A DNA stretch of 64,000 nucleotides from Squalus acanthias (Eukaryota), in contig CM059431.1 of the NCBI GenBank assembly GCA_030390025.1, forward strand, positions 112,532,001-112,596,000, written 5' to 3'. How positions within the stretch are numbered: the first letter of the stretch is position 1; each line of letters opens with the position of its first letter. Shown piece by piece: positions 45 through 63,378 of the stretch. Position numbers and translations under genes: made by a program. The notes beneath the pieces were generated by a model. It was not told where the DNA came from and did not search any database. It saw only the letters and a list, made by a program, of their open reading frames with translations.

Positions 45-2171
45 GGCCGGGAAATTGGAACCGTTTGTGCCGGCCGTTAAGGCCAGTTTGGAGGAAAAAA
101 TTGCGGCCGCCTCACATCCGCCTGCTTCCGGTGCGGAAGGCGGCGGCTGCCATTTTGGGCAGGTCGGCAGAGCTGCTGTTGCCTGCGCTTGCTTCAGATA
201 TTTAGATGAGCCAGATCATGACGTCAATCGGCGTGCAAGGCTGAATTGGCGCACTATCTGGTATTTTGGACGTCACCGCTCTAATTAACCATGGCAGAAC
301 GTGCGTGCAGCAGTACGACGGACCGACTGCCAGTGCTTCTTAAAGGGACACACGCAACCTACAGGTAAGTTTCGATTTTTGCTTTTATACTGGTTTCTTT
401 ACATTTTATTGGTGCAGTGGCTTGGTGTATTACATTTAAAAAGTCGTTAAAGTGTGCAGGGAGTGCTGCTGGGCGTTTGCAAGGCTTTGGCTCTTAAAGG
501 AAGGCCTCTGAGAACACCACTTGCTCCCAGTCCTGGAGGCTTTAGTTGCAGTCCCCCTTGAGCTGCAACATGACATGGAGATGGAGCAGAGGCAGCAAAG
601 GGGACACACTGCTCGCAGAGGGAGGAGGAGGAAGAGGAAAAAGCAGAAGAGAAAGAAGCAGAAGAGGAAGAAGCAGAAGGCGGAAACCCAGGCAGCCCCT
701 TTCTGGCCGGGATATCCGGGATCGAATCATCCGCCTGCGGTACCAGTGACAACAACCCCAATTCCCTTTTAAACATTTGTCCCACACCTTACCTTCCCTC
801 TGTTACTGACTATCACAGCGACCTCTTGGCCACAAGGCTGAAGTAAAAGCCACCATAAAGCAAACTTTCTGATCCAACTTTATCCATATATGCATCCAAT
901 ATTACATCAAGAAATCAACTAATCACCCTTGTGCATTCCCTTAGTGAGTGTCTTGCGTGTGCCTTTGCCTATCCTAGTGCTCTTAGGCAGTGCTACGTCA
1001 GTTGCTTCAGCATGGATGTTGGAAGGCTGCTGACTTTCAGTGTGGGACACTGCAGATGACCTTGTAGGACAACCTCAAGGAGCTGGTGGCTGGGAGTGTC
1101 AAATCGAGTGACGGTGTTTCTTCTTTTTCACTCTCCTCTCCCTCTTCTTGGTCAACCACTGGCTGGGAAGGCTGGATTTCTTGGGTGTCTGAAATGAGGA
1201 AGGCACAAGGTTAAGGTTGTGGTGAGGGGAGGGGCTAAAGAAAGAGGTGCATGCTTACACCATGTATAGCTTGTAAATCAGAAAAAATTGTGGATGAGGG
1301 AGAAGTGGGATGTGAGAAGGAGAATAGTGTATTTATTCTTTCAGCCCCGCCGCTGGCCAAGGGCTCAGCCATGCCCTTGCCAAGAATGGCCAGCACCATC
1401 TCCCCAAAGGGGGTGAGGTGGAGCTAGGAATATGAGGTGTGACTCGTGTTTGGTAAAGATTGTTGGTAGGTGAGTGATGGGGGGTCGTGCATTGAGCAGT
1501 GTGTGACGCTAGTGGTGCAGTTGGTAGGAGATGGCTTTTGAATATGCATTCACTGACCTTGACCACTCGTCTGAGGTCATGAAACTTCTTTGGGGACTGG
1601 AGCTGGGTCCTGGGGGCGACACTACTGGCAGTGACCGCCTCAGCGATCTGTTCCCACATCCTTCTTTCTGGAGCACCTCCTGGCCCCCTGTGGATAGAGG
1701 ACCTCTCTTGCAGTGTTCACTCCCTGCACAAAGCTGGAGTGCTGCGTCTGAGACCATGGGTGCCCTTTCCCAGGCCTGTTGAGCCATTTGTGTTCGTGCT
1801 GAAGCACTTGTACCATTTTTGATCAGCAGAAGGCAGCTCACCTTCAAGAGGTGCATACTGCCTAGTGCTGAAGCACTTCGAAATTTTTCCATCAGCAGAA
1901 GGCAGCTCACCTTTAAGAGGTGCAGACTGCCTTTAAGAGGAGCAGGCTAGCTTTAAGTAAAGCTAGGCTCGATTAAACAACACAAACTTCGGCCTCCTGC
2001 TGAGTGCACAGCCAGTCAGCAGCGCTTTCAGCACTAGGCTGTGCACTACAATCATTATAATTAGCAGGCAGCATGAAGTATTCATGCTGCTTAAGCTTTT
2101 TGAATGGGCCCGGGCATATCTCGCATCACATTGCTCATGCCCGTTTTTTAGTAGTATTGAATTTCTAGACC
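45..2171. mobile_element. Non-autonomous PIF/Harbinger-type DNA transposon (deletion derivative) with a degenerate Myb/SANT-like exon
   Basis: Imperfect TIRs ggccgggaaatt / aatttctagacc. Frameshifted minus-strand Myb/SANT-like exon at 1558-1787 (MAQQAWERAP...WEQIAEAVTASS...KKFHDLRRVVK|gt). Plus-strand remnant ending ...RDIRDRIIRLRYQ* at 749. Colinear in inverted orientation with the copy at 59168-61304. No matching TSD found. Confidence 0.75.
1558..1787 (-). pseudogene. Frameshifted Myb/SANT-like DNA-binding exon of the Harbinger-type element
   Basis: ATG at 1785-1787. The W-x-x-I-A...K-K-F-H-D-L trihelix pattern is split across ORFs 1509..1910 and 1333..1659. GT donor follows VVK. Confidence 0.7.
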
Positions 2172-10457: not shown

Positions 10458-11450
<993 letters not shown>

Positions 11451-16734: not shown

Positions 16735-18675
16735 CTACTTGTGCTTTATCTTCCTCTTACGCGTGTTCCTACGTGGTGCTTCCCCTGTGGCTTCAGCAGA
16801 TGTGGAGGCCCCTTGCTCACTTTCTTGCTGCTCCTGTCTCGACACCTTTGGCGGGTGTCCTCTGGGGTTGCGAGCCTGTGAGGGCTCGGCAACAGTCTGC
16901 TGCTCCTGCGGCTGTGCAGGGGATGAGACGCCCATCTCAGTTGGGTGAGGACTCTGGTTGGGCTCTGACCGAGGGCTTTGCAGTGGCATGGTCATGTGAG
17001 CGCTTGGAGAGGAGCCCCCACTTCCTTGTTGTCTGCCACCAACATCCCTCTCATGGGTCAGCCCCACTTCAGAGCTAGCAAGTGGCTTGACAGCAACTTG
17101 CTGCACTTCAGAGGGGCCATGAGGACCCGTTTCTGCACTGGAAGTCCTACTCCAGAGGACTTCCATGTAGGTCTGGTTTGTATGCTCAATAGCTGACCAT
17201 CGCTCCTCAAGAGATGTCAGTCTATTCTGAACAATGACCATGTTTTCAACACTCTGGCGACTTAGCTCCTCCATGGCCATAGCCATCCTCTCCTCTACCG
17301 TAGCCATCCTTTCCACAGAGGTTGCCATCCTTTCCGTGGTGATGCGTTCATGCGCCAATGCCTCCACAAAGGCTCTGCTCATGTTCGCAATGGACTCCTC
17401 CATTCGCTCCACACTCGCAGCGACCCTGGAGACAAAACCTGCCAGAGACTCCTGCACCTGTTCCTGGAGTTCCAGCACCGCTCTCCTTCTGGATGGACCC
17501 GGAGGCACAGGGTCGACATGCAGCAGAGTCGAGCTGGGAGAGTCCTGCGCCCTCCGACGAGGACTCTCCACTGCTGTCCCTGTCTCCACCATCTGCTGAT
17601 GCTCACTTGTAAGCTGTGATACACCAGGTGACAACACTACTCTATCTCGCGAAGGTCCAACCAAGGTGTGAGTGTCTGCGCTGGTGCTGGGTACACTGAT
17701 TCTGCTGACGCTGCACCCTCAGAGGTTGCATCTTCCTCTGAGGAGTCTTGAGGCTCAGGCTGCTCCTCCTGGACAGTGGGGACGGGGGCTGTCGATGGTC
17801 CTGTGGGGGAGTAAAGGAAAGAGTTAGAGATGTGAGGTAACGGTTGCATGCACATTGAATTGTGTAGATGATCATAAGTCAATCTGTTAGAGCATCAGAT
17901 TCATTATCAGTCACTCATGCAATGTCAATGAGAGAGATGCCAAACTATTACGTCACCAGCTTGCTGTGATGCGCTCGTCTGTCCGTCCCCCACTTGCGAA
18001 TCTTCCTCAACACCGGCGATTTCCAGGGCCGCCTCCTCCGAGGTGGTGAGCTGGGCTACTGAGGATGGCCCTCCTCCTGTCCTCGCTCTTTCCCTCTTAT
18101 TGTGGACTCTCTTTTCCTGCAATGAGGGACACAAGTGGAGTTTGAGTGAGAATGAAGGAGTGAGTGTCGAGAATCCATAGCATAGATGCTTAGAAGGAGA
18201 CCAAGGGCCCTCCCTGTGTGTTGTAAGTTGTTGTTATTGCATCACAGTGATAGGGAGTGTGAGGGCTGCATGGTCGAATAGTTAAGTGAATGTGACCATA
18301 GAGAGACAGGGAATGGGTAAGGGTGCAGGGATGTAAGTGTCAAGTGGGATGTGGAGGAAGAGGTTGGCAAAGCTGAGTGTTGGTGAGGAGAGGCGATGGG
18401 GATCAGATTGAGGGTGATGGCAAAGTCATACTCACTTTTCCTGTGCAGAGAAGGTCATGAAACCTCTTCCTGCACTGCAGCCAGGTTCTGCGGCACATAG
18501 AGATTGAGTTGACCTCCTGGGCCACTTGCATCCACACCGCTTTAGTCTGCTGGGGAGGCTTTTTCCTCCCTGAGGAAGGGAAGAGCACCTCCTTATTTGA
18601 TCTTGCTCCCTCCACCAGAGCTTGGAGGGAGGCCTCATCGAACCTTGGAGCACACTTTGGCCTACTGCTGGACAT
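16735..18675 (-). pseudogene. Transposon Myb/SANT-like DNA-binding protein gene, 3 exons (18436-18675, 17957-18116, 16735-17800), one frameshift near 17700
   Basis: Exon 1: APRFDEASLQALVE...WMQVAQEVNS...RTWLQCRKRFHDL. Exon 2: EKRVHNKRERARTGGGP. GT-AG introns with matching phases 0 and 1. Exon 3 has heptad repeats (VERMATSVERMATVEERMAMAMEEL) and a basic C-terminus (RRNTRKRKIKHK*). Joined length is 1466 nt, one base short of an intact frame. Confidence 0.85.
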
Positions 18676-19957
18676 AGTTGCTGAATGAAGCGATCACAAC
18701 AATGGCCATAAAGTTTAAAGTCTCCAGAAGAAGCAAGGCTGCTTGCAGGCCTTAAATCCAGCTGCATTGATGATGTCACAGAGGCGACTTTCTGTATGAA
18801 AAGACTCATTGGGCCAGGGGTTTCCACACGCTGGAAATCAAGTGCCCAATTCGGGCAAAATCGCACTTTTTTCCCACTTCACATCGGAGTCGGGGTCCTG
18901 ACACGAAAACCACCTGACACGCCCCAGCCCGTCCCCAATGGCAAAATCGAACCCTTGGAGCGCAGCCGGCACTCCGCGGGGGGGTGCCGTTCAGGAGGCC
19001 GGGGACGAGAGCGCAGGCAGGTGCTGGCAGGTGGCCAGCAACAAAAATGGCCGCCCCGCACCTCGCCTTTAAATTGCACCTCCCCGGCCGCAGGTAGGCC
19101 CCCCTGACCCCGTCGACATAGCGTCCGGCGGTAAGTCAGGGGGTGTTCTCGAAGATCACGGCCGGGGCGCGAGCGGGGCGCTGCGCACAGCGATGACGTC
19201 ATTGCCGGCGGCGCAGCACCGTGGGGCGCTACTGGTTAGCGCCGCCGCTAACCTCCCGCTGAATTTCGTGGGAGGCGCAAAGCAACGCAATTTTTCCCCC
19301 GTTATGTTTGTGCTGAATACTTGTTCCTAACGATTTTATGGCGATAGCAGCTGTAATCACAATTTCAGTTGGATTAATTGACAAGATAATAGGATAATGC
19401 GAATTTTCTATCAGGAAAACTCATTAAGGTTTATTTGGAATAGATACTTATGCTTTCAAACATTTTGTGAACAATTCTTTACAGTTACCATGTTTTTCAA
19501 AAATGCTGAAACTTTGCATAATTATATACTAGCTGAATCAAAAGCTATTAAATGTGATTTTTTTTTAAATTATTATTTATTGCATTTTGCAATAGGAAGA
19601 GTGATACCGAACTTGACAGACCAACGTGTTATCCAAATTAGCTTGTATTTTACAACCAAAATATTTAAACTCGAAAGTAAATGTTTTGTGGGGATCAGAA
19701 TTGACTTTAAGAATCTCTAAGCCGGAAGCAAAGAAAAATACGATTCTGGATTTTCTTTAAGGAATTTATTTTAACAGTGGCTTCCCCATTTTGGCTTCGC
19801 CTTTGACATCCTTGTCTGAGAGAGTGGTCAGACAGTCTGCTAGCAAGCCCTTACTACTGCCACCAATCACAATGAGAGAAGTACTGTCCCGCCAACTTTT
19901 CTTCCCTGCCTATAGGGAAGAACCTGGGCACTAATTGGCACCAACCCCTGATGGCAT

Positions 19958-21420
19958 AGGTGAGATGCACTTTGGGAGGAACAACATGGAGAGGCAGTAT
20001 AATCTAAATGGTACTATTTTGTGGGGGGTGCAAGAGCAGAGGGATCAGGGGGTGCATAATCGCAAATCTTTGAAGGTGGCAGGGCAAGTTGATAATGTGG
20101 TTCAGAAAGCTTTGTAAAGAGAGGCATTGAATACAAAGGCAAGGAAGTCATGCTAAACCTTTTTAAATCACTGATTAGGCCTCAGTTAGAGTATTGTGTA
20201 CAATTCTGGGCATCACACTTTAGGAAGGATGTCAAGGCCTTGGAGAAGGTACAGAGGAGGTTTACCAGGATGATACCAGAATGAGAAGTCGCACAACACC
20301 AGGTTATAGTCCAACAGATTTATTTAAAATTACAAGCTTTCGGAGCTGTCGCCCCTTCGTCAGGTAAAGGTGCAATGAAGGAATCTACAATATTACACAA
20401 TATATAAACACAGAAACTGCAGAGATAAATACTAAATAAATAAATAAATACTGCAGGATGATACCAGGGATGAGGGAGTTTGGTTATGTGGAGAGATTGG
20501 AGAAGCTGGGATTGTTCTCCTTAGAGTTAAGGGGAGACCTAATAGAGGCATTCAAAATCATGAAGGATTTTGATAGAGCAAGTAGGGAGAAGTTGTTTCC
20601 TCTGGCAAGTGGGCCAGTAACCAGAGGTCATAGATTTAAAATAATTGGTAAAAGAACTAGAGGGGAAATGAGGAGACATTTTTTTCACACAGAGGGTTGT
20701 TAAGATCTGGAGCACACTACCTGAAAGGGTGGTGGTATCAGATTCCATAGGAATTTTCAAAAGGCATGTACTTGGAGAGGACTAATTTGCAGGGTTATGG
20801 GGAGATAGCTGGGTTGTGGGACTAAATTGGACAGCTCTTTCAAAGAGCCGGCACAGACATGGCTGGCAAAATGGCCTCCTTCTCTGCCACACCTGGAGTA
20901 CTGTGAGCAGTTCTGGGCACCACACCTTATGAAGGATATATTGGCCTTGGAGGGAGTGCAGCGTAGGTTTACCAGAATGATACCCGGACTTCAAGGGTTA
21001 AGTTACAAGGAGAGATTACACAAATTAGGGTTGTATTCCCTAGAATTTAGAAGGTTAAGGGGTGATCTGATTGAAGTTTTCAAGATATTAAGGGGAATAG
21101 ATAGGGTAGATAGAGAGAAATTATTTCTGCTGGGTTGGGGAGTCTAGGACTAGGGGGCATAGTCTAAAAAATTAGAGACAGACCTTTCAGGAGTGAAATT
21201 AGGAAACACTTCTACACACAAAGGGTAGAAGTTTGGGATTCTCTTCCGCAAACGGCAGTTGATGCTAGGTCAATTGTTAATTTTAAATCAGAGATTGATA
21301 GCTTTTCGTTAACCAAAGGTATTAAGGGATATGGGCCAAAGGCGGGTATATGGAGTTAGGTCGCAGATCAGCCATGATCTCATTGAATGGTGGAAGAGGC
21401 TCGAGGGGCTGAATGGCCCA
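19958..21420 (+). mobile_element. Tandem CR1 LINE 3' fragments
   Basis: EMHFGRNN...; [55 protein letters not shown]. Two successive CR1 3' ends. Confidence 0.85.
20280..20453 (-). mobile_element. Penelope-like terminal-repeat fragment (family B) with hammerhead motif, inserted in CR1
   Basis: Minus strand CTGACGA-A-GGGGC-GACA-GCTCC-GAAA-GCTT. Flanked by the 14-bp duplication caggatgataccag (20266-20279 and 20454-20467). Confidence 0.7.
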
Positions 21421-37144: not shown

Positions 37145-37240
37145 CAGTTCTGACGAAGGGTCATCGACCTGGAACGCTAACTCTGTTTCTCCTCGATGCT
37201 GTCTGACCTGCTGAGTGTTTCCAGCATTTTCTGTTGTTGT
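37145..37240 (+). mobile_element. Penelope-like short repeat (family A) with degenerate hammerhead motif
   Basis: AGTT-CTGACGA-A-GGGTC-ATC-GACCT-GGAA-CGCT-AACT; the GAAA box is mutated. Confidence 0.65.
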
Positions 37241-37825
37241 TACTGTAACAGCATGCTGCAGAATAGATTAGTGGGGACATTAATGTTTATTGCACCCGAT
37301 ACATGGCTATATGGAGTTGCAATCTTATTTGATTATATTTAATTTTCTTAGCACTGTCCACATTGTTCTAATCAATGTTTAAGTTTATTTTATGCAATAA
37401 ATTGCAGAAAATGATGGAGATGGTACTAATCTCATTTTTGTTTTAGGTTTGCATATTCCAATGACAAATGCTTCTGCTGACAATGGACTGATTTACTTTA
37501 GGATGAATTTACACTACAAACGTAAAATCAGCGCGAAGCACTTTCACTTCACACCAACACTGCATTAATCGGGTAGAATTTCTAGTCCTTGTCGATGTTG
37601 AGGTACCTGGCACACCGTAAGTGCAGGTCATAAAACTGCAGGCCCACTGCTGCCCATAGTGCGAATGCAGGCTATATCCAGAATCAGGGCCTGACCTGAT
37701 GTTAGAGCAAAGTAGAGTGAGACTGCTCCACTTTGCTGCAGAGTCAGGTAGGGCTTTAACAGCTGATTTGCACCATGGTAAGGGATGTAGGCTTCGGGTG
37801 TGAAACCACCAAGTGTTGTGGGTGA

Positions 37826-38069
37826 ATAAAAAACAAAAATGCTGGGAGAGCACTCAGCAGGTCGGGCAGCATCTGTGGAGAGAGAAACAGAGTTAACGTT
37901 TCAGGGCAATGACCTTTCGTCAGAACGCACGTTCCGTTCTGACGAAAGGCCATCGACCTGAAACGCTAACTCTGTTCCTCTCTCCACAGATACTGCCTGA
38001 CCTGCTGAGTATTTTCAGCATTTTGTGTTTTTATTTCAGAATTCCTTAATCCGCAGTATTTTGCTTTTG
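37826..38069. mobile_element. Inverted dimer of family A Penelope-like repeat with two hammerhead motifs
   Basis: Foldback centred near 37931. Minus strand 37892-37926 reads GTT-CTGACGA-A-AGGTC-ATT-GCCCT-GAAAC-GTT-AAC. Plus-strand motif at 37936-37970. Confidence 0.75.
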
Positions 38070-38324
38070 TATAAGTCTTGTGTGTTTCTCTTTTGGGTCC
38101 CCCCAAGTCCGCCGAGGACTCAAATTGTCGCTCTGACTGCACTCCAAATTTAATAGACGACTGCCCAGCTTGGAGTGTAAATGTACCTTGAAAGTCTGAA
38201 GGTTTTTAGAGAAATGATAGTCTGACCATTTGACTTGAGGGTCTCTTGATATCTGTGTTCTACCAATGTGGCTTCTATGTACTGCTGCATCTCTATTTAT
38301 AGCTGAGTGCTGTGTTTTTCTGAC

Positions 38325-44667: not shown

Positions 44668-44718
44668 GTGGTTTTGTTACAATTTTCAGAATCTTGCACT
44701 ATTTTAGTTAATATTAGC

Positions 44719-44887
44719 CATGATGTGGAGATGCCGGTGTTGGACTGGGGTGGACAAATGTGAGAAGTCACACAACACCAGGTTATAGTCCAACAGTTTT
44801 ATTTGAAATCATAAGCTTTCGGAGCGCTGCTCCTTCGTCAGGTGAAGTGAAGAAATGTATATTGGCACAGCATATATATGCGCAAAT
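44719..44887 (-). mobile_element. Penelope-like terminal repeat (family B) with hammerhead motif
   Basis: Minus strand TCAC-CTGACGA-A-GGAGC-AGC-GCTCC-GAAA-GCTT-ATGA; near-identical to the 51579-51839 arms. Confidence 0.75.
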
Positions 44888-48132: not shown

Positions 48133-48234
48133 AAAATATTATTTGTCGGGATATATATTTGAGTTGCTGAGGGAGCACTATAACCACTTTTTCTACTTGA
48201 CTATATTTGAGCATTTTTTTAAATTATTTGTTCC

Positions 48235-50115
48235 TGGGCTGCATGCGGGCGTGGACTGCTTCATTATCTGAGGAGTTGCGAATGGAACTGAACACTGTGT
48301 AATCATCAGCGAACATCCCACTTCTGACCTTATGATGGAGGGAAAGTTATTGATGAAGCAGCTGAAGATGGTTGGGCCTAGGACACTGCCCTGAAGAACT
48401 CCTGCAGTGATGTCTGGGGCTGAGATGATAGACCTCCAACAACCACAACCATCTTCCTTTGTGCTAGGTATGACTTCAGCCAGTGGAGAGTTTTCCCCCT
48501 GATTCCCATTGACTTCAATTTTACTCGGGCTCTTTGATGCCACACTCGGTCAAATGCTGCCTTGATGTCAAGGGCAGTCACTCTCACCTCACCTCTGGAA
48601 TTCAGTTCTTTTGTCCATGTTTGGACCAAGGCTGTAATGAGGTCGGGAGCAGAGTGGTCCTGGCGGGACCCAAACTGAGCATCGGCGAGCAGGTTATTGG
48701 TGAGTAAGTGCTGCTTGATAGCACTGTCGACGACACCTTCCATCACTTTGCTGATGATTGAGAGTAGACTTATGGGGTGGTAATTGGCTGGATTGGATAT
48801 GTCCTGCTTTTTGTGGACAGGACATACCTGGGCAGTTTTCCACATTGTCGGATAGATACCAGTGTTGTAGCTGTACTGGAACAGCTTGGCTAGAGGCATG
48901 GTTCATTCTGGAGCACAAGTCTTCAGCACCACAGCCGGGATGTTGTCGGCGCCCATAGCCTCTGCTGTATCCAGTGCGCTCAGCCATTTCTTGATGTCAC
49001 GTGGAGTGAATCGAATTGGCTGAAGACTGGCTTCTGTGATGGTGGGGTCCTCAGGAGGAGGCCGATATGGATCATCCACTCGGCACTTCTGGCTGAAGAT
49101 GGTTGCAAACGCTTCAGCCTTGTCTTTTGTACTCACGTGCTGGGCTCCACCATCATTGAAGATGGGGATGTTCATGGAGCCTCCTCCTCCCGTTAGTTGT
49201 TTAATGGTCCACCACCATTCACGACTGGATGTGGCAGGACTGCAGAGCTTTGATCTGATCCGTTGATTGTGCGATCGCTTAGCTCTGTCTAGAGCATGCA
49301 GCTTCTGCTGTTTAGCATGCATGTAGTCCTGTGTTGCAACTTCCCCAGATTGGCACTGCATTTTTAGGTACGCCTGGTGCTGCTCCTGGCATGCTCTTCA
49401 GCACTCCTGATTGAACCAGGGTTGGTCCCCTGGCTTGATGGTAATGGTAGAGTGAGGGATATACTGGGCCATAAGATTACAGATTGTGGTGGAATACAAT
49501 TCTGCTGCTGCTGATGGCCCATAGCGCCTCATGGATGCCCAGTTTTGAGCTGCTAGATCTGTTCTGAATCTATCCCATTTAGCACGGTGGTAGTGCCACA
49601 CAACACGATGGAGGGTGTCCTCAGTGTGAAGACAGGACTTAATCTCCACAAGGACTGTGCGGTGGTCACTGCTACCAATACTGTCATGGACAGATGCATC
49701 TGCGACAGGTAGATTGGTGAGGACGAGGTCAAGTAGGTTTTTCCCTCGTGTTGGTTCTCTCACCACCTGCGTATGCCCAGTCTGGCAGCTATATCCTTCA
49801 AGATTTGGCCAGCTCGGTCAGTAGTGATACTGCTGAGCCACTCTTGGTGATGGACATTGAAGTCCCCCACCCAGAGTACATTCTGTGCCCTTGCTACCAT
49901 CAGTGCTTCTTCCAAATGGTGTTCAACATGGAGGAGTACTGATTCATCAGCTGAGGGAGGGCAGTAGGTGGTAATCAGCAGGAGATTTCCTTGCCCATGC
50001 TTGACCTGAAGCCATGAGTATTCATGGGGTCCGGAGTCAATGTTGAGGACTCCCAGGGCCACTCCCTCCTGACTGTATACCACTGTGCTGCCACCTCTGG
50101 CGGGTCTGTCCTGCC
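48235..50115 (-). mobile_element. CR1-group LINE ORF2 fragment (APE endonuclease plus reverse transcriptase), frameshifted
   Basis: WVGDFNVHH; PTRGKNLLDLVLTN...SDH; NYHPISLLSIISKVMEG; QFGSR; ALDIKAAFDRVWH; GVLQGSVLGP. Confidence 0.92.
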
Positions 50116-50195
50116 GTTTGAGTCAATCAGAAAAGTCTAACAGAATTTTTGTGCTGCAGGCGCATTTTTAAAATGTGAAGGCTTTATGCAATACA

Positions 50196-50415
50196 TAACA
50201 AAAGCAAAATACTGTGGATGCTATAAATCTGAAATAAAAACAGAAAATGCTGGAAATACTCAGCAGGTCAGGCAGCATCTGTGGAGAGATAAACAGAGTT
50301 AACCTTTCAGGTCAATGAACTTTCGTCAGAACTAGGACATCAACCTGAAAGGCTAACTCTTTTTCTCTCTCCACAGATGTTGCCTGACCTGATGAGTGTT
50401 TCCAACATTTTCTGT
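50196..50415. mobile_element. Inverted dimer of family A Penelope-like repeat
   Basis: Foldback centred near 50333. Minus strand AGTT-CTGACGA-AAGTTC-ATT-GACCT-GAAAG-GTT-AACT. Confidence 0.7.
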
Positions 50416-51206
50416 ATATATTATATAATTGGGTTAATTTTACAAATGTGGCAAATTTTACACTATATTCTGCATAAAATACTACTTTGTCCCACGACCA
50501 TTTATGCTTTCTGCAAGCGACTACTGGAAGTTATTTTGCAATGCAGTAGAAACTCTACATTTCCCTCTTTGCTCTTGCTTGCTGCACACCACATCCTCCA
50601 AGCTCCTGCAACAGGCTGCCAAAAACATTAATCTGCTGGTATGCATTAGCTGACAGGCAGACGGTAATTGTGCCAAATACAGTACATTAATCTGCATTGC
50701 CATAAACCGTATGTGCAATTACCATAAAGCCTTGAGTGCACTTTGTTCCCCCCAACAAGACATTCAACAACATTTCTCTGCTGCATTGTAGCTCTTGGAA
50801 AAATTGGGGATGGGGCTTATTATAGACAGATACAACATTTATCCTAAAATTGGTGCTTCTAAGTGGGAGGTGTGTGTACACTATACATTGTGAACATATT
50901 ATAACCCCAAGTTTACAGTGCCGATCATCGCCCACTTATATTTTACAAATAGAATGGCTGGTTTACAGAAATGACATTGCTACACACACATCACTGCTGA
51001 GTACTTCCAGCAGTTTCTGTTTATATTTCAGATTTGCAGCATCCGCAGTATTTTTCCTTTTGTACACATTGCGGAGTTGTACAATTGACAGCACCCGGAG
51101 GTTTATTTCCTCCAGTTTATCGGTGCCCAGCGTATCCTTTATAGTGTGACTTATCACAAATTAGCGCAGATGTTTCTGTATTCACCAAATAAATGCCCCA
51201 CTAACT

Positions 51207-51563
51207 CATAGAATTACATAGAATTTTACAGCACAGAAACAGGCCATTCGAACCGACTGGTCTATGCCGGTCTTTGTGCTCCACACGAGCCTCCTCCCAC
51301 CTTACTTCATCTAATCCCATCAACATATCCATCTATTCCTTTCTCCCTCATGTACATATCTAGATTCCCCTCAAATGCATCTATGCTATTCGCCTCAACT
51401 ACTCCATGTAGTAGTGAGTTCCACTTTCTCAAAACTCTGGGTAGAGAAATTTCACTTGAATTACTTATCGGATTTATTGCTGACTATCTTAGATTTATAG
51501 CCCCTAGTTTTGGACGCCCCACAAGTGAAAACATCTTCTCTATATCTACCCTATTGAACCCTT
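51207..51563 (-). mobile_element. CR1 LINE 3' end
   Basis: Reverse-complement CR1 3' region with (tctatg)n-type tail. Confidence 0.75.
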
Positions 51564-51578
51564 TCATAGTTTTATTAG

Positions 51579-51839
51579 TGAGAAGTCGCACAACACCAGG
51601 TTATAGTCCAACAGCTTTATTTGAAATCACAAGCTTTCGGAGCGCTGCTCCTTCGTCAGGTGAAGTGAAGAAATACATATGGGCACAGCATATACTGCCC
51701 ATATGTATTTCTTCACTTCACCTGACGAAGGAGCAGCGCTCCGAAAGCTTGTGATTTCAAATAAAGCTGTTGGACTATAACCTGGTGTTGTGCGACTTCT
51801 CACTTTTGTCCACCCCAGTCCAACACCGGCATCTCCACA
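51579..51839. mobile_element. Penelope-like inverted terminal-repeat insertion (family B), perfect foldback
   Basis: 109-bp identical inverted arms (51577-51685 and 51696-51804) with a 10-nt loop and a 35-bp one-sided tail. 15-bp TSD tcatagttttattag (51564-51578 and 51840-51854). Confidence 0.85.
51718..51754 (+). ncRNA. Minimal type I hammerhead ribozyme motif
   Basis: TCAC-CTGACGA-A-GGAGC-AGC-GCTCC-GAA-AG/CT-T-GTGA: stem I TCAC:GTGA, core CUGANGA and GAAA, 5-bp stem II, palindromic mini stem III. Activity untested. Confidence 0.7.
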
Positions 51840-51854
51840 TCATAGTTTTATTAG

Positions 51855-52323
51855 CCATGGCTCAGTTGGCTGTCAGCTGTAGCCCTCTTGTCTCTGAATC
51901 AGAAGACTTGTGGGTTCAAGTCCCACTCCAGACATTTGAGCACATAAAGCTAGGCTGGCACTCCAGTGCCATACTGAGGGAGTGCTGCACTGTCAGAGGT
52001 GCTGTCTTTTGGACAAGACGTTGAATCGAGGCCCCGTCTGCTCTCAGGTGGATGTAAAATATCCCATGGCACTATTTCAAAGAAGAGCAGGGGAGTTATC
52101 CCCGGTGTCCTGGCCAATATTTATCCCTCGATCAACATCACTAAAACAGATGATCTGGTCATTATCACATTGCTGTTTGTGGGAGCTTGCTGTGCACAAA
52201 TTGGCTGCCACGATTCCTACATTACAACAGTGACTGCACTCCAAAAGTACTTCATTGGCTGTAAAGCACTTTGGGACGTCCTGAGGTCGTGAAAGGTGCT
52301 ATATAAATGCAAGTCTTTCTTTC
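51855..52323 (+). mobile_element. DeuSINE (SacSINE1-like)
   Basis: tRNA-like head, Deu domain and tail. Confidence 0.85.
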
Positions 52324-52856
52324 TATCAGGTCATCTCTTCTCTTTTCTCGAGACTGGCACACCATTTAATGGTATTTAACCTCCTAGTGGATAAGAGACA
52401 CATCCCCAGCCCTTCAGGCAGCATTACAGAGTTAAATGCTCAGCAATGAGGTTTAGGAACAAAAAGGTAGATTGTAAATATATTGAATACACAGTGGGGC
52501 AAATAAAGGTCATCACTTGGATTAGACTTTCTGAGAACTCAGTGCTGCAGGAACGTTAAACTATTTTTTCTATATTTTTATTTCACATTTTCTTTGATAA
52601 ATGTGAGTTTTCATCTCCAGATTCGGCTGTTTTGGTTTTGCTGCGGATGATACGGGACTAGCAACAGCAGCAGCTGCAGGGATCCTGAAACGTTGTTCAC
52701 AGGACGCAGCTGTGAGTCAGGAAGCAATTCATGTGACTCCGGCTCGGAAACAGGAACCAGCCTCATTCTGCACTAGGCTGAGATCAGCAGCGGGGGGCGG
52801 GGGTTGTGTATTTATTCCGAGGCGCTGAGCTGAGCCCGGCCCCGATCGCTTGGAGG

Positions 52857-52960
52857 ATGGGGATAGCCCTATGGAGCGTCGCCTGCCTTTGCCTAGCTTT
52901 GCAGCGAGCCTCCAGCGCTGTTGCTGCCCGGGGACCTCAGACATGGCCAGTGCCTTACAG
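52857..52960 (+). CDS. CLN5: CLN5 exon 1 (signal peptide)
   Basis: ATG 52857: MGIALWSVACLCLALQRASSAVAARGPQTWPVPY(R)|gtggg. The WPVPY motif ends CLN5 exon 1 in human. Phase 2 matches exon 2. GC-rich context. Confidence 0.88.
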
Positions 52961-53803
52961 GTGGGTGTAGCCCGTCCTGGACTTGTTTCGGTTCCTGGCT
53001 CTGTGGAATGCGGAAGTGTTCCTTCAGGGCTGTAGCAGTGCATTGCAAATAAGTTTCAGATTTGGAGATGAAACATTAATAACAGCAATTGCCACTGTTT
53101 CTTTCTAATAATCTATAGCTTGGGGTTAATTACATTACTTCAGTGAAACTATAACAGCCCCTTGGGGCCTTTGGAAGTTCAATTTCTTCATGAGAAAAGC
53201 AACAACTACTTGCATGGGAACGGTAGCATAATGGTTATGTTACTGGACCAGTAATCCAGAGGCCTAGACTAATGATCCAGAGACGTGAGTTCATATCCCC
53301 CATAGCAGCTGTGGAATTTAAATTCAGTTAATTAAATAAATCTGGAATAAAAAGCAAGTATCAGTAATGGTGACCATGAAACTAACGGATTGTCATAAAA
53401 ACCCATCTAGTTCACTAATGCCCTTTAGGGAAGGAAATCTGCCGTCCTTACCCGGCCTGGCCTATATGTGACTCCAGACCCACAGCAATGTGTTTGACTC
53501 TGAACTGGCCTAGCAAGGCAATTAAGATGGGCAATAAATGCTGGCCTAGCCAGCGACGCCCACATGCTGTGAACATATTTTAAAACATAGTGCCTTTAGG
53601 GTAGTAAAATGTCCCAAGGCACTTCACAGGAGTGTTATCGGAGACATTAGGGCAGAAGCTTGGTCAAAGATTTAGATTTTAAGGAGCATCGTAATGGAGG
53701 TAGGCCAATGGTGGAGTAATTAAGATTGCAATTGAACATATAAACAGACACTCGAACATATAAACAGACACTCAGCAAGTCAGGCAGCATTTGTGGAAAC
53801 AGA

Positions 53804-54549
53804 GGCCCGGAATTTGCGGTCAGGATGATGGCGAACTGGCAACGTTCGCCGTCATTCCGCCTTTGAAAATGAGACCCCGCAACTTCAGAAATCTCGAAGT
53901 TGCGGTCTGTCAATGACAGCTCCAAAACTGGCTGCGCTGGCCCCGCCCCCCCACCCCCCCACCCCCCACTGAGCCGGCAATCAGTGAAATCTCATAAAAC
54001 GTTAAAACTGACAAACTTTGGCTCTTTCGCAGTAAGTCCGCTGTTAAATTCCCCACTAAAAGTTAGACCCAGAGGGATTAGGTGTAACTGGGGTTTTAAC
54101 AGCGTATTGACTGCTAAACAAAGGTTAAGGGCCTGGAAAATGAATTTTCATTTTGCGCAGTGTGAAATTTGTCCATTTTTTAAGAAACTTTTCAAAAAAA
54201 TGAATTTAATTTTTGTTTTCCGTTTGTCCATTTTTATTTCAGGTTTGCCTTTTCCCCAATGTGAGAACCCCAATCTTTTGCTCTCTAACTATTTAAAAAG
54301 TTAGAATTTTAAGAGTGTACTCCGTTCCTTGTTCGCTGTCTGTGAGAATTCTGCCTTTTGATTGGCTGCTTAGACAGCCTGTTGACGTCACAGCAGTTCG
54401 AACAAGGGGATCCTCTGCTACAGTCCATTGAACTGAGGATCGGTAAACCCGAAGTTCTCAACACAGGGATTGCGAGATCCTTGTGCGGAGCGTACTTCGG
54501 GGCCAGCAGTGAACGTCTTCGCTTTGTTACTGACCGCAAATATCGGGCC
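53804..54549. mobile_element. Harbinger-type MITE inserted into a family A repeat, in CLN5 intron 1
   Basis: TIRs ggcccggaatttgcggtcag / ctgaccgcaaatatcgggcc. 3-bp TSD AGA. Removing it restores gaaacagagttaacgtttcagg. Confidence 0.88.
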
Positions 54550-55326
54550 AGAGTTAACGTTTCAGGTCGGTGACCTTGCGCCTGACCTGCCGAGTACTTC
54601 CAGCACTTTCTGTTTACATTTCAGATTTCCAGCATCTGCAGTATTTTGCCTTTGCAGCTGGACAGTTCATTTTAACTTAAAAGAGGAAACATTTCACTTT
54701 TTAATGCAAAATAAAAACTTACCCGTGCCCAGTGTTGCAAACAAAATCAAGGCTGAGGTGACAGTGAATTGTACGGGTCTGGTGAGAGGACTGTTAGGAG
54801 TGACAATATACTTTAATACGTCACTCTCCGCAAGTTGGCCTGAAAGGTGGAGACTGACTGAGTACATTTATTTTTCCCTGGTGGGTCCCACCTTCTCAAG
54901 GAATAGCAGATGCAGTCTCATGAGCACATTTACTAACAAGCTTTGTAATGGCTTTTCATCAAGTCTTGTTTCTAAAGAAGCAGCAACTGTCCCGATTAAC
55001 AGAAGTCCTTTGTCCTGTCTACGGAGCAGTTTAGTCCACTGCACATCGATCCAGTGACATTTTTATTTCACCGTGAACTGGTGGATAAAACTCTTGATTG
55101 TGTGATTTCCTGAAACAAGAAAAAAAAACTGTTAGGCAGAGGGGAAAGATGGGGCTTGAGAACTCCCCAGACTGTATACTAAATAAGATAAGGAAAAACT
55201 GCTGCCATTGTGCACAGTTCACTAATCCTCCATGTCGGTACAAGTGCTATTAAAAGAGAGTCATTTAAGATCACAAAAACCTATAGGTTCTACAGGGCTT
55301 GACATTAGATTGCTTAGACTTGGCCA

Positions 55327-57527: not shown

Positions 57528-57753
57528 CAAATTATGCATGATGCAATTGGTTTCCGGAGCACTTTGACAGGCAAAAACTACACGATGGAGTGGTATGAGC
57601 TCTTTCAGCTTGGGAACTGCACCTTCCCACATCTTCGACCTGGTATCGAGGCTCCTTTCTGGTGCAATCAGGGAGCTGCCTGTTTCTTTGAGGGAATAGA
57701 TGATTTACATTGGAAAGAAAATGGGTCCTTGGTAAAAGTATCTGAAATAACAG
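57528..57753 (+). CDS. CLN5: CLN5 exon 3
   Basis: cag|[75 protein letters not shown](G)|gtaag. 226 nt. Confidence 0.96.
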
Positions 57754-59167
57754 GTAAGTGTGTTGGTTAACAAACCAATATATACAAGGATCAATTGGCT
57801 GTTCAGAAAGGTACTTTCATTAACCAACACTCGAAAGGATTCACACGATTAAAGGATGATATTTAGAATAGGTTGAGTAGCAAACATAAAATTAATATGC
57901 ATTTTAAAAGCAATAAAAGCCCAACAAAATGTTTTAAAATGCTAGCATAAACTGCATAATTCAGTTTAAACTGCAGTGCCCAATAGCCGAATGCTCTTGG
58001 AATGGAGGTCTTCACTTAACTATATTAGGGAAAAATTGCCATTTGAATCAGCCTATTTGGAACACATTTCTTTCTAGCGGATTCAACATTGCGAAGTGTA
58101 CAGTTTATTAACATTTGCGCTGAACTCCACTTTTTCCTACTAGTCTCTGCTGGTGATGAGGAATAGTAAATGGAGCGAATTTAACCTAATTTGCTTAAAA
58201 TCATGTGAAATCCAGATACTTTCCTCATTCTTTGAATCTTGCAAAGCCCTTGATATTACACAAGGTCAGTGGCAAAATGCAATTTTGTCACAAGTTGGCC
58301 TTGTTACTCTGGAACCTGCCTTGTAAATAACCCAGCTGTGTTATTACAAGAACCTTGCACTTTGTCACTTTGAGAGCTTCTTCGTAATCTTTGTACATTG
58401 CTGGACGGAGTTCATTGATCGCGTGGAGGCCTCTGGATTTCACCAGGAAAGATTTACTGTTGAGCACATTGTGTGCTAAGCTGGAGGTTTACGATTCGAA
58501 TTAAGCTGCTAACAATGGACTAGTTTGTGCCTGGGTGGTTTATCTGTTGAAAGTGGCTGTCTGATACTGGGAATACAAATGGCAGCTCAGCAGCAGAGCA
58601 CAGATAATGTAGAAACTTCAAAGAATGGCATTATAAACTTAACGTTGGTGTTGAAATCAGCAGCCACTGCATAGCTGCAGCTGATACTGCCCTTGTGTGC
58701 ATTACTGCTGATAATGGCGCTCAGGTTTTAAGTTGGTAATTCTGTTCCTGTACGTTGCATGCTTGGAAGATCAGCTGTAGCTGCAGCGTATCGTGTAGCC
58801 AGAGTACAGGTACAATTGAGTCTGGCACCCGAGTACAGCAATCTTGTGCAACATCTCAAATCTCAAACCAAGTTAATTACTTGCAATAGATGCCAATTTC
58901 TGATTAAAGCAGCATTGATATATGCTGTAAACAATAGATTTATTGTTGAATCTAATGGGTTTATTTTGGAATTTGAGATTCTGCCTGGTGTCAGCAGTTG
59001 TGTGCACTGATCTAAGTGGAGCTGACTCATTTTGAAAACAAAAATAAGGCTGTCGGAATAATGAGTAAAGGAAAGTAGTGTTGTTTAATCAGCTTGATTC
59101 AGCCCCAAGTTAAAGAATATTCTTTTTTAAAAAACAACAGACTAGCGACATTAAGGGCAAAAACAGC

Positions 59168-61304
59168 AGCCTAGAAATTCCAGTGCGCTGAAAAGCTGCC
59201 GGTGCCACCACGGGTCGCAGTTGACTGCCGTCTGAATTAATCGGGCAGGCAGCACCGGTATTTTGGTGCTGCCTGCTAATTTAAATTAGCGCAGCCCTAA
59301 ACTTACTGTGTAAGGCTGGTTTTCGGGCGCTACCCTCAGTGTAGCGTGGCCATAGCGTCCCTGGAGCAAGAACAGCGTGAGCTTAAAGCTAGCCTGCCAT
59401 TTTAAAGGGGAACTGCCTTCTAAAATTAAAAAATTAAAATCATTTAAAAATAGGCAGTTTATAGCCCTTCGAGCTCAACTGCCTTCTGGAAAAAAAAAAT
59501 AAACAATAAAAATAATTCTCAAACGGCAGTCTCCAGCTCTTAAAGCTGAATTGCCTTCTGCACCTAAAAAATTGGTAAAAGTGCTTCAGCACTAAAATAA
59601 ATGGCTCAACAAGCCAGGGAAGGGGCACTCCAGCTTTCTCCAGGGGGGTCAACACTGCAAGAGAGGTCCTCTACCCAAAGGGGCCAGGAAGCCCTCCAGA
59701 AAGAAGGATGTGGGACCAGATCTCTGAGGCCATCGCTGCCAGCAGTGCCGCACCCACGACCAGGCTCCAGTGCCCAAAGAAGCTTCATGACCTCAGACCA
59801 GTGGTCAAGGTCAGTGAATGCACCTTCAAAAGCCGTCTCCTATCAACTGCACCACTAGCCTCCCACACTGCTCATTGCACGACCCCCCCCCCCCCCCCCA
59901 CCCACCCACATCACTCACCTACCAAACACGAGGCACATCTCACATTCCAAACTTCACCTCACCCATTTGGAGGAGATGGTGCTGGCCATTCTTGGCAGGG
60001 GCATTGCTGAGCCCTTGACCAGCGGCAAGACTGAAAGGATACAAGATGTTTGTATCCTCATACGTTATTCTCCTTCTCGCATACATCTCTTGCTTTCCTG
60101 CCCTCCCCTCCCCACAACTTCACCCTTGTGCCTTCCTCATTTTACACACCCAAGAAATGCAGCCTGCCCAGCCAATGGTTGACCAATAAGAGCGAGAGGA
60201 GAGTGAAGAAGAAGAAGAAACACCGTCACTTGATTTCACACACCCAGCCACCAGGTGGCCCAGCAAGGCCATCTGTAGTGTCTCCCACTGAAAGTCAGCA
60301 GCCTTCCACCAGCCATGTTGCAGCCACTGGGGTAGCACTGCGTGACATCACTAGGATAGGCAAAGGCACACACAAGACAGTCACTAATCGAATGCACAAG
60401 GGTGATTAGTTGATTTCTTGATGTCATATTGGATGGATAGATGTATAAAGTTGGATTGGAAAGTTTGCTTTGTGATGGCTTTTATTTCAGCATTGTGGCC
60501 AAGAGGACACTGCGATGGTTAGTAACAGAGAAAAGGTAAGGTGTGCGACAAATGTTGAAAGGGGAATTCAGGTTGTGGTCACTGGTACCGCAGACGGATG
60601 ATTCCATCCCGGATATTCGCGACAGAAAAGGGCTGTCTGGGTTGCATCCTTCCTTCTGCTTCCTCCTCTTCTGCGTCTTCCTCTTCTCTCTGCGAGGGCA
60701 TGCTGGAAATCTGAAATAAATGCTGGAAATACTCAGCAGATCAGGCAGCATCTCAACCTGAGATGTGAACACTGTTTCTCTCTCCATGGATGCTGCCTGA
60801 CCTGCTGAGTATTTCCAGCAATTTCTGTCTTCTCAGAGGCCTTCCTTTACCATCCGAGGCCTTGCAAGCATCCAGCAGCACTCCCTGCACACTTTAAAAA
60901 CTTTTAACATCTATTGCACCAAGCCACCAGTTCAATTAAATATTATTTTTAAAGTCCAAAAATCTTAAATCCAAACTTACCTGAAAGATGTGTGTGTTCC
61001 TTTAAGTAGCGCTGACAGCGTCTCCGTAGGTCTATTGCATGCCCGTCTTTCTGAGCGAGCTTAGGGCCCAGCATTAAAGTCAGTGCAAAGGTCCAAGTTT
61101 GCAGAGCGTGGCACGACGACTGACGTCACACTCTGCTGTTTTGCATTTCTAGGGCCAGTGCTGCTAACGGCAGCGCTATCGCCCTAAGCAAAATGATGGC
61201 CGCCGAGTCCCGCGCCAGAGGCGGGCGGAAGTAAGGCAGCCATCATTTTTTTTCACAAAATGGGCCTTACCGTAGAGAGCGGTAAGTACCCGAATTTCTT
61301 GGCC
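59168..61304. mobile_element. Non-autonomous Harbinger-type element, second copy of the 45-2171 family in inverted orientation
   Basis: TIRs agcctagaaattc / gaatttcttggcc. Degenerate Myb exon 59601-59809 (+) (WDQISEAIAASS...CPKKLHDLRPVVK|gt). Contains a family A repeat at ~60700-60830. Confidence 0.8.
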
Positions 61305-62978: not shown

Positions 62979-63378
62979 TGATGCGGAGATGCTGGTGTTG
63001 GACTGGGGTGGACAAAATTGAGAGGTCGCACAACACCAGGTTATAGTCCAACAGTTTTATTTGAAATCACAAGCTTTCGGAGCTATCGATCGCCCCTTCC
63101 TCAGGTGAAGTAGAGAAATACAGACTCGACAAAGCATATATAGATAGAGAACAATGCATGTGTGCCTTACAATTGCAGACAACTAAATTAAATCATCCTG
63201 ATGATTTAATTTAGTTGTCTGCAATTGTAAGGTACACATGCATTGTTCTCTATCTATATATGCTTTGTCGAGTCTGTATTTCTCTACTTCACCTGAGGAA
63301 GGGGCGATCGATAGCTCCGAAAGCTTGTGATTTCAAATAAAACTGTTGGACTATAACCTGGTGTTGTGCGACCTCTCA
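62979..63378. mobile_element. Penelope-like inverted terminal-repeat insertion (family B), near-perfect foldback
   Basis: 182-bp arms (63016-63197 and 63200-63381) with one mismatch and a 2-nt loop. 13-bp TSD attgtataggtta (62966-62978 and 63379-63391). Confidence 0.85.
63289..63330 (+). ncRNA. Minimal type I hammerhead ribozyme motif, sense to the CLN5 pre-mRNA
   Basis: TCAC-CTGAGGA-A-GGGGC-GATCGATA-GCTCC-GAAA-GCTT-GTGA. Activity untested. Confidence 0.65.

Follow-up and report, generated by a model that had tools for sequence, protein, structure and literature searches.

The hairpin-shaped insertion of 261 bases at 51579-51839 of the 64-kb window (the whole stretch of DNA analyzed here) is quite likely a dead-on-arrival, 5′-truncated pseudo-LTR (pLTR) insertion of an endonuclease-bearing Penelope-like element (PLE). 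This reading is based on 3′ ends at two fixed sites, 5′ ends that vary, an inverted arm without tail, a 15-bp target-site duplication (TSD) and a consensus hammerhead motif, all of which are seen in the window. The family is real, abundant and Penelope-type, and its copies are best interpreted as truncated pLTR ends. Their insertion pattern is known for PLEs, and the element is most likely a mostly ordinary one. As the parent was not found in our searches, PLE membership is judged by cis anatomy only. A first-pass annotation of this DNA had reported four related insertions, hammerhead motifs, TSDs and perfect arms, and as observations these are confirmed.

Structure of the insertion and its sister copies

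The insertion, hereafter copy 3, is bounded by the same 15 letters (80% A+T) on the left (51564-51578) and on the right (51840-51854). An inverted arm without tail (51579-51694, minus strand) is joined to a ribozyme-sense, tail-bearing arm (51696-51804, plus strand) that aligns as a 5′-truncated pLTR. The arms are 100% complementary over 109 nt (51577-51685 and 51696-51804) around a 10-nt centre, 2 nt of the left arm lying inside the TSD. The tail-less arm reaches 9 nt deeper into the parent than its partner on the right. It therefore supplied the centre loop, which can be read as parent sequence along this arm but not along the tail-bearing one. One junction base (51695) is unmatched to the parent sequence of either arm and differs both from the consensus of loose contig ends (see below) and from the copy at 44.7 kb. 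Together with the first bases of the right arm, it matches a word 13 nt further along the parent continuation given by those loose ends, and a short-homology jump (word match at 51695-51700) is a possible origin of the centre.

Copy 3 had previously been described as a perfect 109-bp palindrome and as probably young. The arms are indeed perfect, but the insertion is not a pure palindrome, as 51805-51839 has no mirror. Likewise, 0 of 109 arm positions are mismatched, but this bounds arm divergence only to below 2.7%. The one-sided extension of 35 nt (51805-51839, plus strand; 4-nt overlap with the TSD, to 51843), missed in the earlier annotation, is by analogy with described elements the Penelope tail. 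A contig of run X1 carries the right junction (51821-51928) with no differences, but X1 is possibly the source sample. None of the listed contigs crosses copy 3 from end to end.

When the element was compared with the window by blastn, four copies (six arms) at the positions annotated earlier gave the only matches at E < 1e-29; two further matches at E 0.32 are noise. Copy 1 (20280-20453, minus strand) is a single arm without tail, hosted by a LINE fragment and flanked by a 14-bp TSD (20266-20279/20454-20467). Copy 2 (44715-44880, minus strand, edges approximate) is a single arm with the full tail, for which boundary comparison found no TSD. Copy 4 (62979-63378) is a second fold-back, with arms of 182 bp (99%, one arm mismatch), the tail at the left and a 13-bp TSD (62966-62978/63379-63391). 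The 13-15-bp TSDs claimed for three copies are thus exact (14, 15 and 13 bp, the second at 51564-51578/51840-51854), and among random boundary pairs only 1 in 5000 shares a word of at least 13. Core-region identities to copy 3 of 88/92 (copy 2), 84/99 (copy 1) and 83/97 (copy 4) indicate that several subfamilies are present.

The 5′ ends differ in every copy, and all six arms extend beyond an initiator-like word. Two of the four copies consist of one arm each, in one case bounded by a clean TSD, and two are fold-backs; the copies are spaced 6.8-24 kb apart, with tandem units in 0 of 4. Alignment of the six arms shows that they end at two sites, three arms at each, which is what the two reverse-transcription (RT) start sites of a PLE would predict. 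Copy 1, the left arm of copy 3 and the right arm of copy 4 end at an internal site near 51804, while copy 2, the right arm of copy 3 and the left arm of copy 4 end at a distal site near 51843. The two sites are 35-39 nt apart, and the tail is found in both fold-back copies. At the five TSD-bounded 3′ junctions, element and target overlap by 4, 2, 1, 3 and 0 nt (the overlap of 2 nt being that of the tail-less arm of copy 3), with P about 0.0003-0.006 under a geometric model and for a small sample.

Extent of the family in public contigs

Contigs of four runs (three from organism A, namely two samples and a guessed RNA run, X19, and one from organism B) were matched to 51450-51970 at 88% likeness. 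Run X1 gave 23,724 matching contigs and the others 15,255, 11,665 and 2,998, part of them on the flanking repeats. Summed contig depth in X1, which is not copy number and is to be read as an order of magnitude only, rises from 14,925 to 1,206,059 (about 80-fold) at the internal end and falls from 2,053,732 to 5,744 (about 350-fold) past the tail end. The steps at both ends have the same direction in the other three runs. Depth in the tail bin is about 4e5 times that of the unique junction contig, in line with six arms per 64 kb.

Behind 51843, loose ends (136 contigs in X1, 106 in X5 and 23 in X19) agree at 0.36-0.41 after a few letters, a scatter as expected of unrelated flanks. Their first letters match copy 2, indicating that the parent end extends a few bases further and contains an ATG. 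This tail-end ATG (predicted at 51842-51844 in the parent) may be the start of an ORF. For a 30-codon open frame before it there were four protein candidates, none at E 0.01, which is weak evidence; one protein match (E 5e-4, among 1.84 billion representatives) was to a repetitive protein and was rejected. Behind 51694, loose ends of 39, 34 and 15 contigs agree at 0.73-0.85 in three of the four runs. Copy 3 is therefore truncated from something longer, a sequence that both organisms have.

The contigs also contain 409 arm-to-arm joints. The 15 listed of these 409, seen in up to four runs, have 15 different centres, so the fold-back is made anew at each insertion and is not inherited as a unit. 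An empty-site joint was not found among the 15.

The hammerhead motif

In the tail-bearing arm of copy 3, the hammerhead motif occupies 51718-51754 (plus strand). Stem I is formed by 51718-51721 and 51751-51754, the core by 51722-51728 with an extra A at 51729, stem II by 51730-51734 and 51738-51742, and GAAA stands at 51743-51746. The motif has the extra A after A9, G10.1-C11.1, a 5-bp helix II, a palindromic G-C pair at 15.2/16.2, a CUU site and a 4-bp helix I, and helix III is absent. Cleavage is predicted after 51750, and the position given for it earlier is correct. A mirror motif lies at 51627-51663 (minus strand; C3 at 51659).

The earlier identification as a minimal type I hammerhead is borne out by the published consensus for metazoan PLEs (Cervera and de la Pena). 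CUGANGA plus an extra base, G10.1-C11.1, a 5-bp helix II without helix III, the palindromic 15.2/16.2 pair, a 4-bp helix I, a U-rich upstream and an AU-rich downstream part are all shared; its turtle row has the same G-C-U-U junction and its lamprey row the same helix I. No cartilaginous-fish row occurs in the searched supplement text of PMC4209133 (0 for 'shark' and 'Callorhinchus'), a text without file 1 and perhaps incomplete for figures.

A minimal-hammerhead descriptor found six motifs in the window, one per arm and all within the four copies, compared with 0.015 per dinucleotide-shuffled window (200 shuffles) and 0 in 20000 shuffled arms. On the other hand, the covariance-model check that the first-pass annotation had proposed was negative: Rfam gave no gathering-level match in the 64-kb window and, at E up to 10, no hammerhead among its 12 matches on 51500-51900. 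Such a miss would be expected for a motif without helix III.

Across the six arms, 53 of 54 paired cells (98.1%) are kept, versus 22-49% for slid partners. The statement that stem pairing is kept therefore holds with one exception, the closing pair of stem I, which is broken in copy 2. A clean stem I had been noted for the two fold-backs; it is there, but copy 1 is complete too, through a C-G to U-A double change. By itself this single double change is not significant, being reached by 91 of 500 shuffles. The catalytic boxes, described earlier as kept, are invariant in 6/6 arms, but most of the downstream 50 nt is equally invariant; only in comparison with the stem II loop and the upstream part are the boxes distinct. 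In the contigs, whose reads were preselected at 88% likeness, 1 of 11 core positions (G12, CpG) is variable at 5-10% of depth, like the rest of the arm. In organism A, U17 (51750) is C at about a quarter of depth, which leaves the triplet cleavable, and at 51753 the stem I G-to-A change of copy 1 is present at 4-9% of depth.

RNA folding of the isolated motif gives the structure as drawn (stem II p about 0.99, stem I p 0.84-0.95). In the whole element, both ribozyme stems have p 0.0 and are inside a hairpin of -210.6 kcal/mol. Because of the head-to-head arrangement, transcription from either side reaches the antisense arm before the sense arm, and read-through RNA therefore cannot form the ribozyme. 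Thus, the earlier remark that copy 3 presents a motif on each strand is true of the DNA, but not of read-through RNA, in which the motif is fully paired. According to these models, the ribozyme of copy 3 is a passenger, locked in the 109-bp hairpin; for cleavage it would have to meet a second sense copy, and the protein of the element may be required too. Such motifs are described as not cleaving as monomers and only weakly as dimers (Cervera and de la Pena); dimer cleavage is attributed to Lunse et al. 2016, as cited in PMC6765202. Cofolding of two motif copies favours an intermolecular stem II over a 4-bp helix III, which says little, as energy models do not score the hammerhead core. Whole-arm folding is no better than that of shuffles (z -1.05).

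A perfect 9-bp stem (51768-51776 with 51817-51825, plus strand) surrounds the internal end site. It is invariant across the arms and for that reason without covariation support. It appears to resemble the stem-loop of PAc, a Poseidon-type PLE of Anolis carolinensis, and is a candidate RT-binding stem-loop, a role taken from Frangieh et al. 2024 (PMC11167929).

Affiliation and alternative explanations

Several PLE features are present in the family: a pLTR with a minimal hammerhead in 6/6 arms, a tail of 35-39 nt in both fold-backs together with two end sites, an inverted 5′-truncated copy in 2/4 copies and in the 409 contig joints, and variable 5′ truncation with a TSD in 3/4 copies. Partial-tandem pLTR-ORF-pLTR copies were not found in the 64-kb window. 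Hammerhead-bearing PLE ends with inverted copies and tails have already been described in many animals. Published PLE anatomy comprises an inverted 5′-truncated copy and, at one end, a tail of 30-40 bp (PMC8557442; PMC3846280). According to Frangieh et al. 2024 (PMC11167929), this tail is what lies between two internal start sites of the RT. Opposite-strand motif pairs 100-700 bp apart are reported from S. mansoni, and single motifs are ascribed to truncated PLEs (Cervera and de la Pena). Literature searches for a shark or elasmobranch Penelope family listed no paper that, judged by title and abstract opening, concerns a family of this kind.

Like copy 3, Pen2a of A. vaga has a head-to-head inverted 5′-truncated copy, an extension of 30-40 bp and a TSD, and the A. 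vaga pLTR shares with the present family a TATA-like box, there about 20 bp before an initiator-like TCACT word (PMC3846280). Unlike in Pen2a, the pLTR end alone is copied here, with no ORF between the arms, and the element is known here from pLTR ends alone. The D. virilis promoter is described as TATA-less (PMC2377424). In PAc, two RT start sites, placed in a stem-loop downstream of the hammerhead, bracket the tail, as appears to be the case here, and insertions from uncleaved RNA and AT-rich targets are similar as well (PMC11167929). The PAc ORF, however, starts in stem II, whereas here no frame passes through the ribozyme and the sole downstream ATG is the one predicted at the tail end.

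No RT/GIY-YIG parent was found among the 329 stop-to-stop ORFs of at least 62 aa in the window (Pfam). The only RT in these frames is that of an APE-type LINE at 48.4-50.1 kb, which is unrelated and was rejected as a parent. Exact-motif scans of metagenome contigs, viral contigs and prokaryote genomes gave 0 matches; a 22-mer tail motif occurs in three metagenome contigs, all from a single locus that is otherwise unlike the window, and this match was rejected as chance.

The first-pass annotation had proposed a non-autonomous family of Penelope type. Anatomy and consensus support the second part of that proposal, but not a discrete non-autonomous unit: the 5′ ends differ, the family continues upstream of the centre and the fold-back centres vary, all of which 5′ truncation of a longer element predicts. 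It is possible that this longer parent is non-coding instead of a coding PLE. A dedicated non-autonomous PLE derivative (a dispersed monomer of retrozyme type or a SINE-like RNA, transcribed as a short unit of its own and mobilised in trans) would nevertheless agree with the very high abundance of the family (23,724 contigs in X1 alone), with the 30-nt spacing of TATA-like and initiator-like words kept in longer copies and with the failure to find an ORF. Moreover, pLTR derivatives of this kind have been described. The non-LTR retrozymes (Li, Clavereau, Pollet, bioRxiv 10.64898/2026.07.22.740005) are, like the present copies, non-coding, pLTR-derived and provided with a type I hammerhead, and they are reported from the one chondrichthyan sampled. 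They are defined by head-to-tail tandem units, however, whereas here the copies are solitary or head to head, of variable length, widely spaced and in 0 of 4 cases tandem. Since the 5′ ends differ everywhere and pass the initiator-like word in 6/6 window arms, and since the family continues upstream, we consider such a derivative improbable.

Three further explanations bear on the shape of copy 3. A MITE or fold-back DNA transposon with an incidental ribozyme likeness would also be small, non-coding, hairpin-shaped and TSD-flanked. Where a MITE has equal terminal inverted repeats, a fixed TSD and a fixed size, we find outer ends made unequal by a 35-nt tail, TSDs varying from 13 to 15 bp, variable centres and single arms in half of the copies, one with a clean TSD. 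Together with the absence of the motif from 20000 shuffled arms, this already largely refutes the MITE reading, to which we give hardly any credence. An assembly or sequencing fold-back artefact might be suspected from the 100% arm identity and from the want of a listed contig across the whole stretch, but it is extremely unlikely in view of the exact 15-bp TSD, the asymmetric tail, the arm mismatch in the second fold-back, the right junction in X1 reads (possibly the source sample) and the hundreds of analogous joints, the listed ones occurring in up to four runs. Finally, a location about 1 kb ahead of the CLN5 start codon and sub-threshold Rfam miRNA matches could suggest a regulatory hairpin co-opted by the host, either as a miRNA precursor or as an upstream element of CLN5. 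However, none of the 12 Rfam matches reaches its gathering score, all of them reflect the long hairpin, and with four such insertions in 64 kb the closeness to a gene is unremarkable. We therefore regard co-option as very improbable and retain the truncated pLTR reading.

Proposed formation of the fold-back

For a PLE insertion, the GIY-YIG/RT protein of the parent would make cuts staggered by 13-15 nt in the target. Reverse transcription would be primed by one DNA end at the distal site, yielding the arm plus tail, and by the other at the internal site, yielding the inverted tail-less arm; pairing of 1-4 nt with the target would help priming. Both cDNAs would stop early, a few bases apart, and then be joined head to head. 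For PAc, both target strands are reported to be cut and extended by the PLE protein, with uncleaved RNA as the principal template (PMC11167929). In line with this, all six arms run through the cut site, so the templates were uncleaved or religated there. Among the 15 listed joints (of 409), only 2 have an arm end at most 2 nt from the predicted cut; these joints give no sign of cleaved templates, although the numbers are too few.

Some observations do not fit easily. Two independent cDNAs leave the near-symmetric arm stops (differing by 9 nt in copy 3 and 2 nt in the 63-kb copy) unexplained. Four of five junctions have short target overlaps, whereas PAc primes in vitro at sites not homologous to the target (PMC11167929). 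TSDs are 13-15 bp here but 8-10 bp in A. vaga (PMC3846280), and one of the three TSD targets has only 50% A+T. The nearness of the arm stops points to some coupling between the two syntheses, and it agrees with self-priming (a hairpin) on one cDNA or antisense template, which Arkhipova et al. 2013 argue for on an antisense template (PMC3846280). On the other hand, the loop of copy 3 belongs to the tail-less arm and would not result from a simple fold-back of tail-primed cDNA, a hairpin from the internal-primed strand alone cannot add the tail, and PAc extends both target strands in vitro (PMC11167929). Self-priming thus seems possible but doubtful; it touches one step of the mechanism and not the identity of the element. 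For the way in which head-to-head inversions and tails of PLEs arise, the family is a very large natural data set: at about one insertion every 16 kb (4 in the 64-kb window), the genome allows the loop arm, the arm stops and the target pairing to be counted.

The joints also bear on a candidate promoter. In copies 1, 2 and 4, a TATA-like box lies 21-22 nt before the initiator-like word (predicted at 51713-51719, plus strand, with a candidate start A at 51715), and the bases between them drift. In copy 3 the box is lost on the tail-bearing arm and clipped on the other, making this copy an unlikely source element. By analogy with A. vaga, the word may be part of a promoter. In 12 of the 15 listed joints (of 409), the longer arm ends at 51713-51718, in 6 an arm ends exactly at 51715, and the next letter is often G or C; the clustering reflects either a transcription start or an alignment effect. 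We suggest, tentatively and as something rather unlikely, that many stubs represent the initial 90-130 bases of the PLE's own capped transcript, copied in full. The RT, starting internally, would load on the 5′ pLTR, with both target strands priming, one per start site and as a dimer; both cDNAs would run off at ~51715, just before hammerhead stem I, and the G or C would be the copied cap. Against this, the joints are 15 listed of 409, subfamily divergence upstream of 51713 can clip alignments, the extra G is maybe a subfamily's own base, and all four window copies pass 51715. If true, ~1e5 insertions in the genome would be a direct read-out of the PLE promoter position and of the inversion step.

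Genomic setting and other repeats

Copy 3 precedes CLN5, the exons of which are on the plus strand of the window, and is situated between two older repeats, which we take to be a LINE fragment and a SacSINE1-like SINE. The likely first coding exon of CLN5 is at 52858-52961, in a CpG island (52501-53000). A KCTD8/12/16-type gene (intronless ORF, 10458-11450, minus strand; Pfam) was also found; in humans, KCTD12 adjoins CLN5. No ACOD1 domain was found between the KCTD gene and CLN5 in frames of at least 62 aa. Copy 4 lies downstream of CLN5 exon 3 (about 57529-57754), and no further CLN5 exon was found up to 64000; copy 4 is therefore probably a long double-stranded hairpin in CLN5 pre-mRNA (intron 3). 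Many long perfect hairpins in host pre-mRNAs are implied, which would be likely ADAR or Dicer substrates.

A second, more decayed hammerhead-like fold-back family is present at 37860-38070, 50189-50430, 37147-37241, 54549-54654 and 60718-60843. Several of its arms start directly with the stem I strand that precedes CUGA, which recalls the clustering of centres in the family described above. The APE-type LINE is represented by an ORF2 with APE-endonuclease and RT (48196-50122, minus strand), broken across several frames. Additionally, Myb/SANT-like domains at 18406-18693 and 1336-1716 (both minus strand) and an inverted pair of about 1 kb (676-1687 with 59680-60652, 86%) presumably represent the remains of Harbinger-type DNA transposons.
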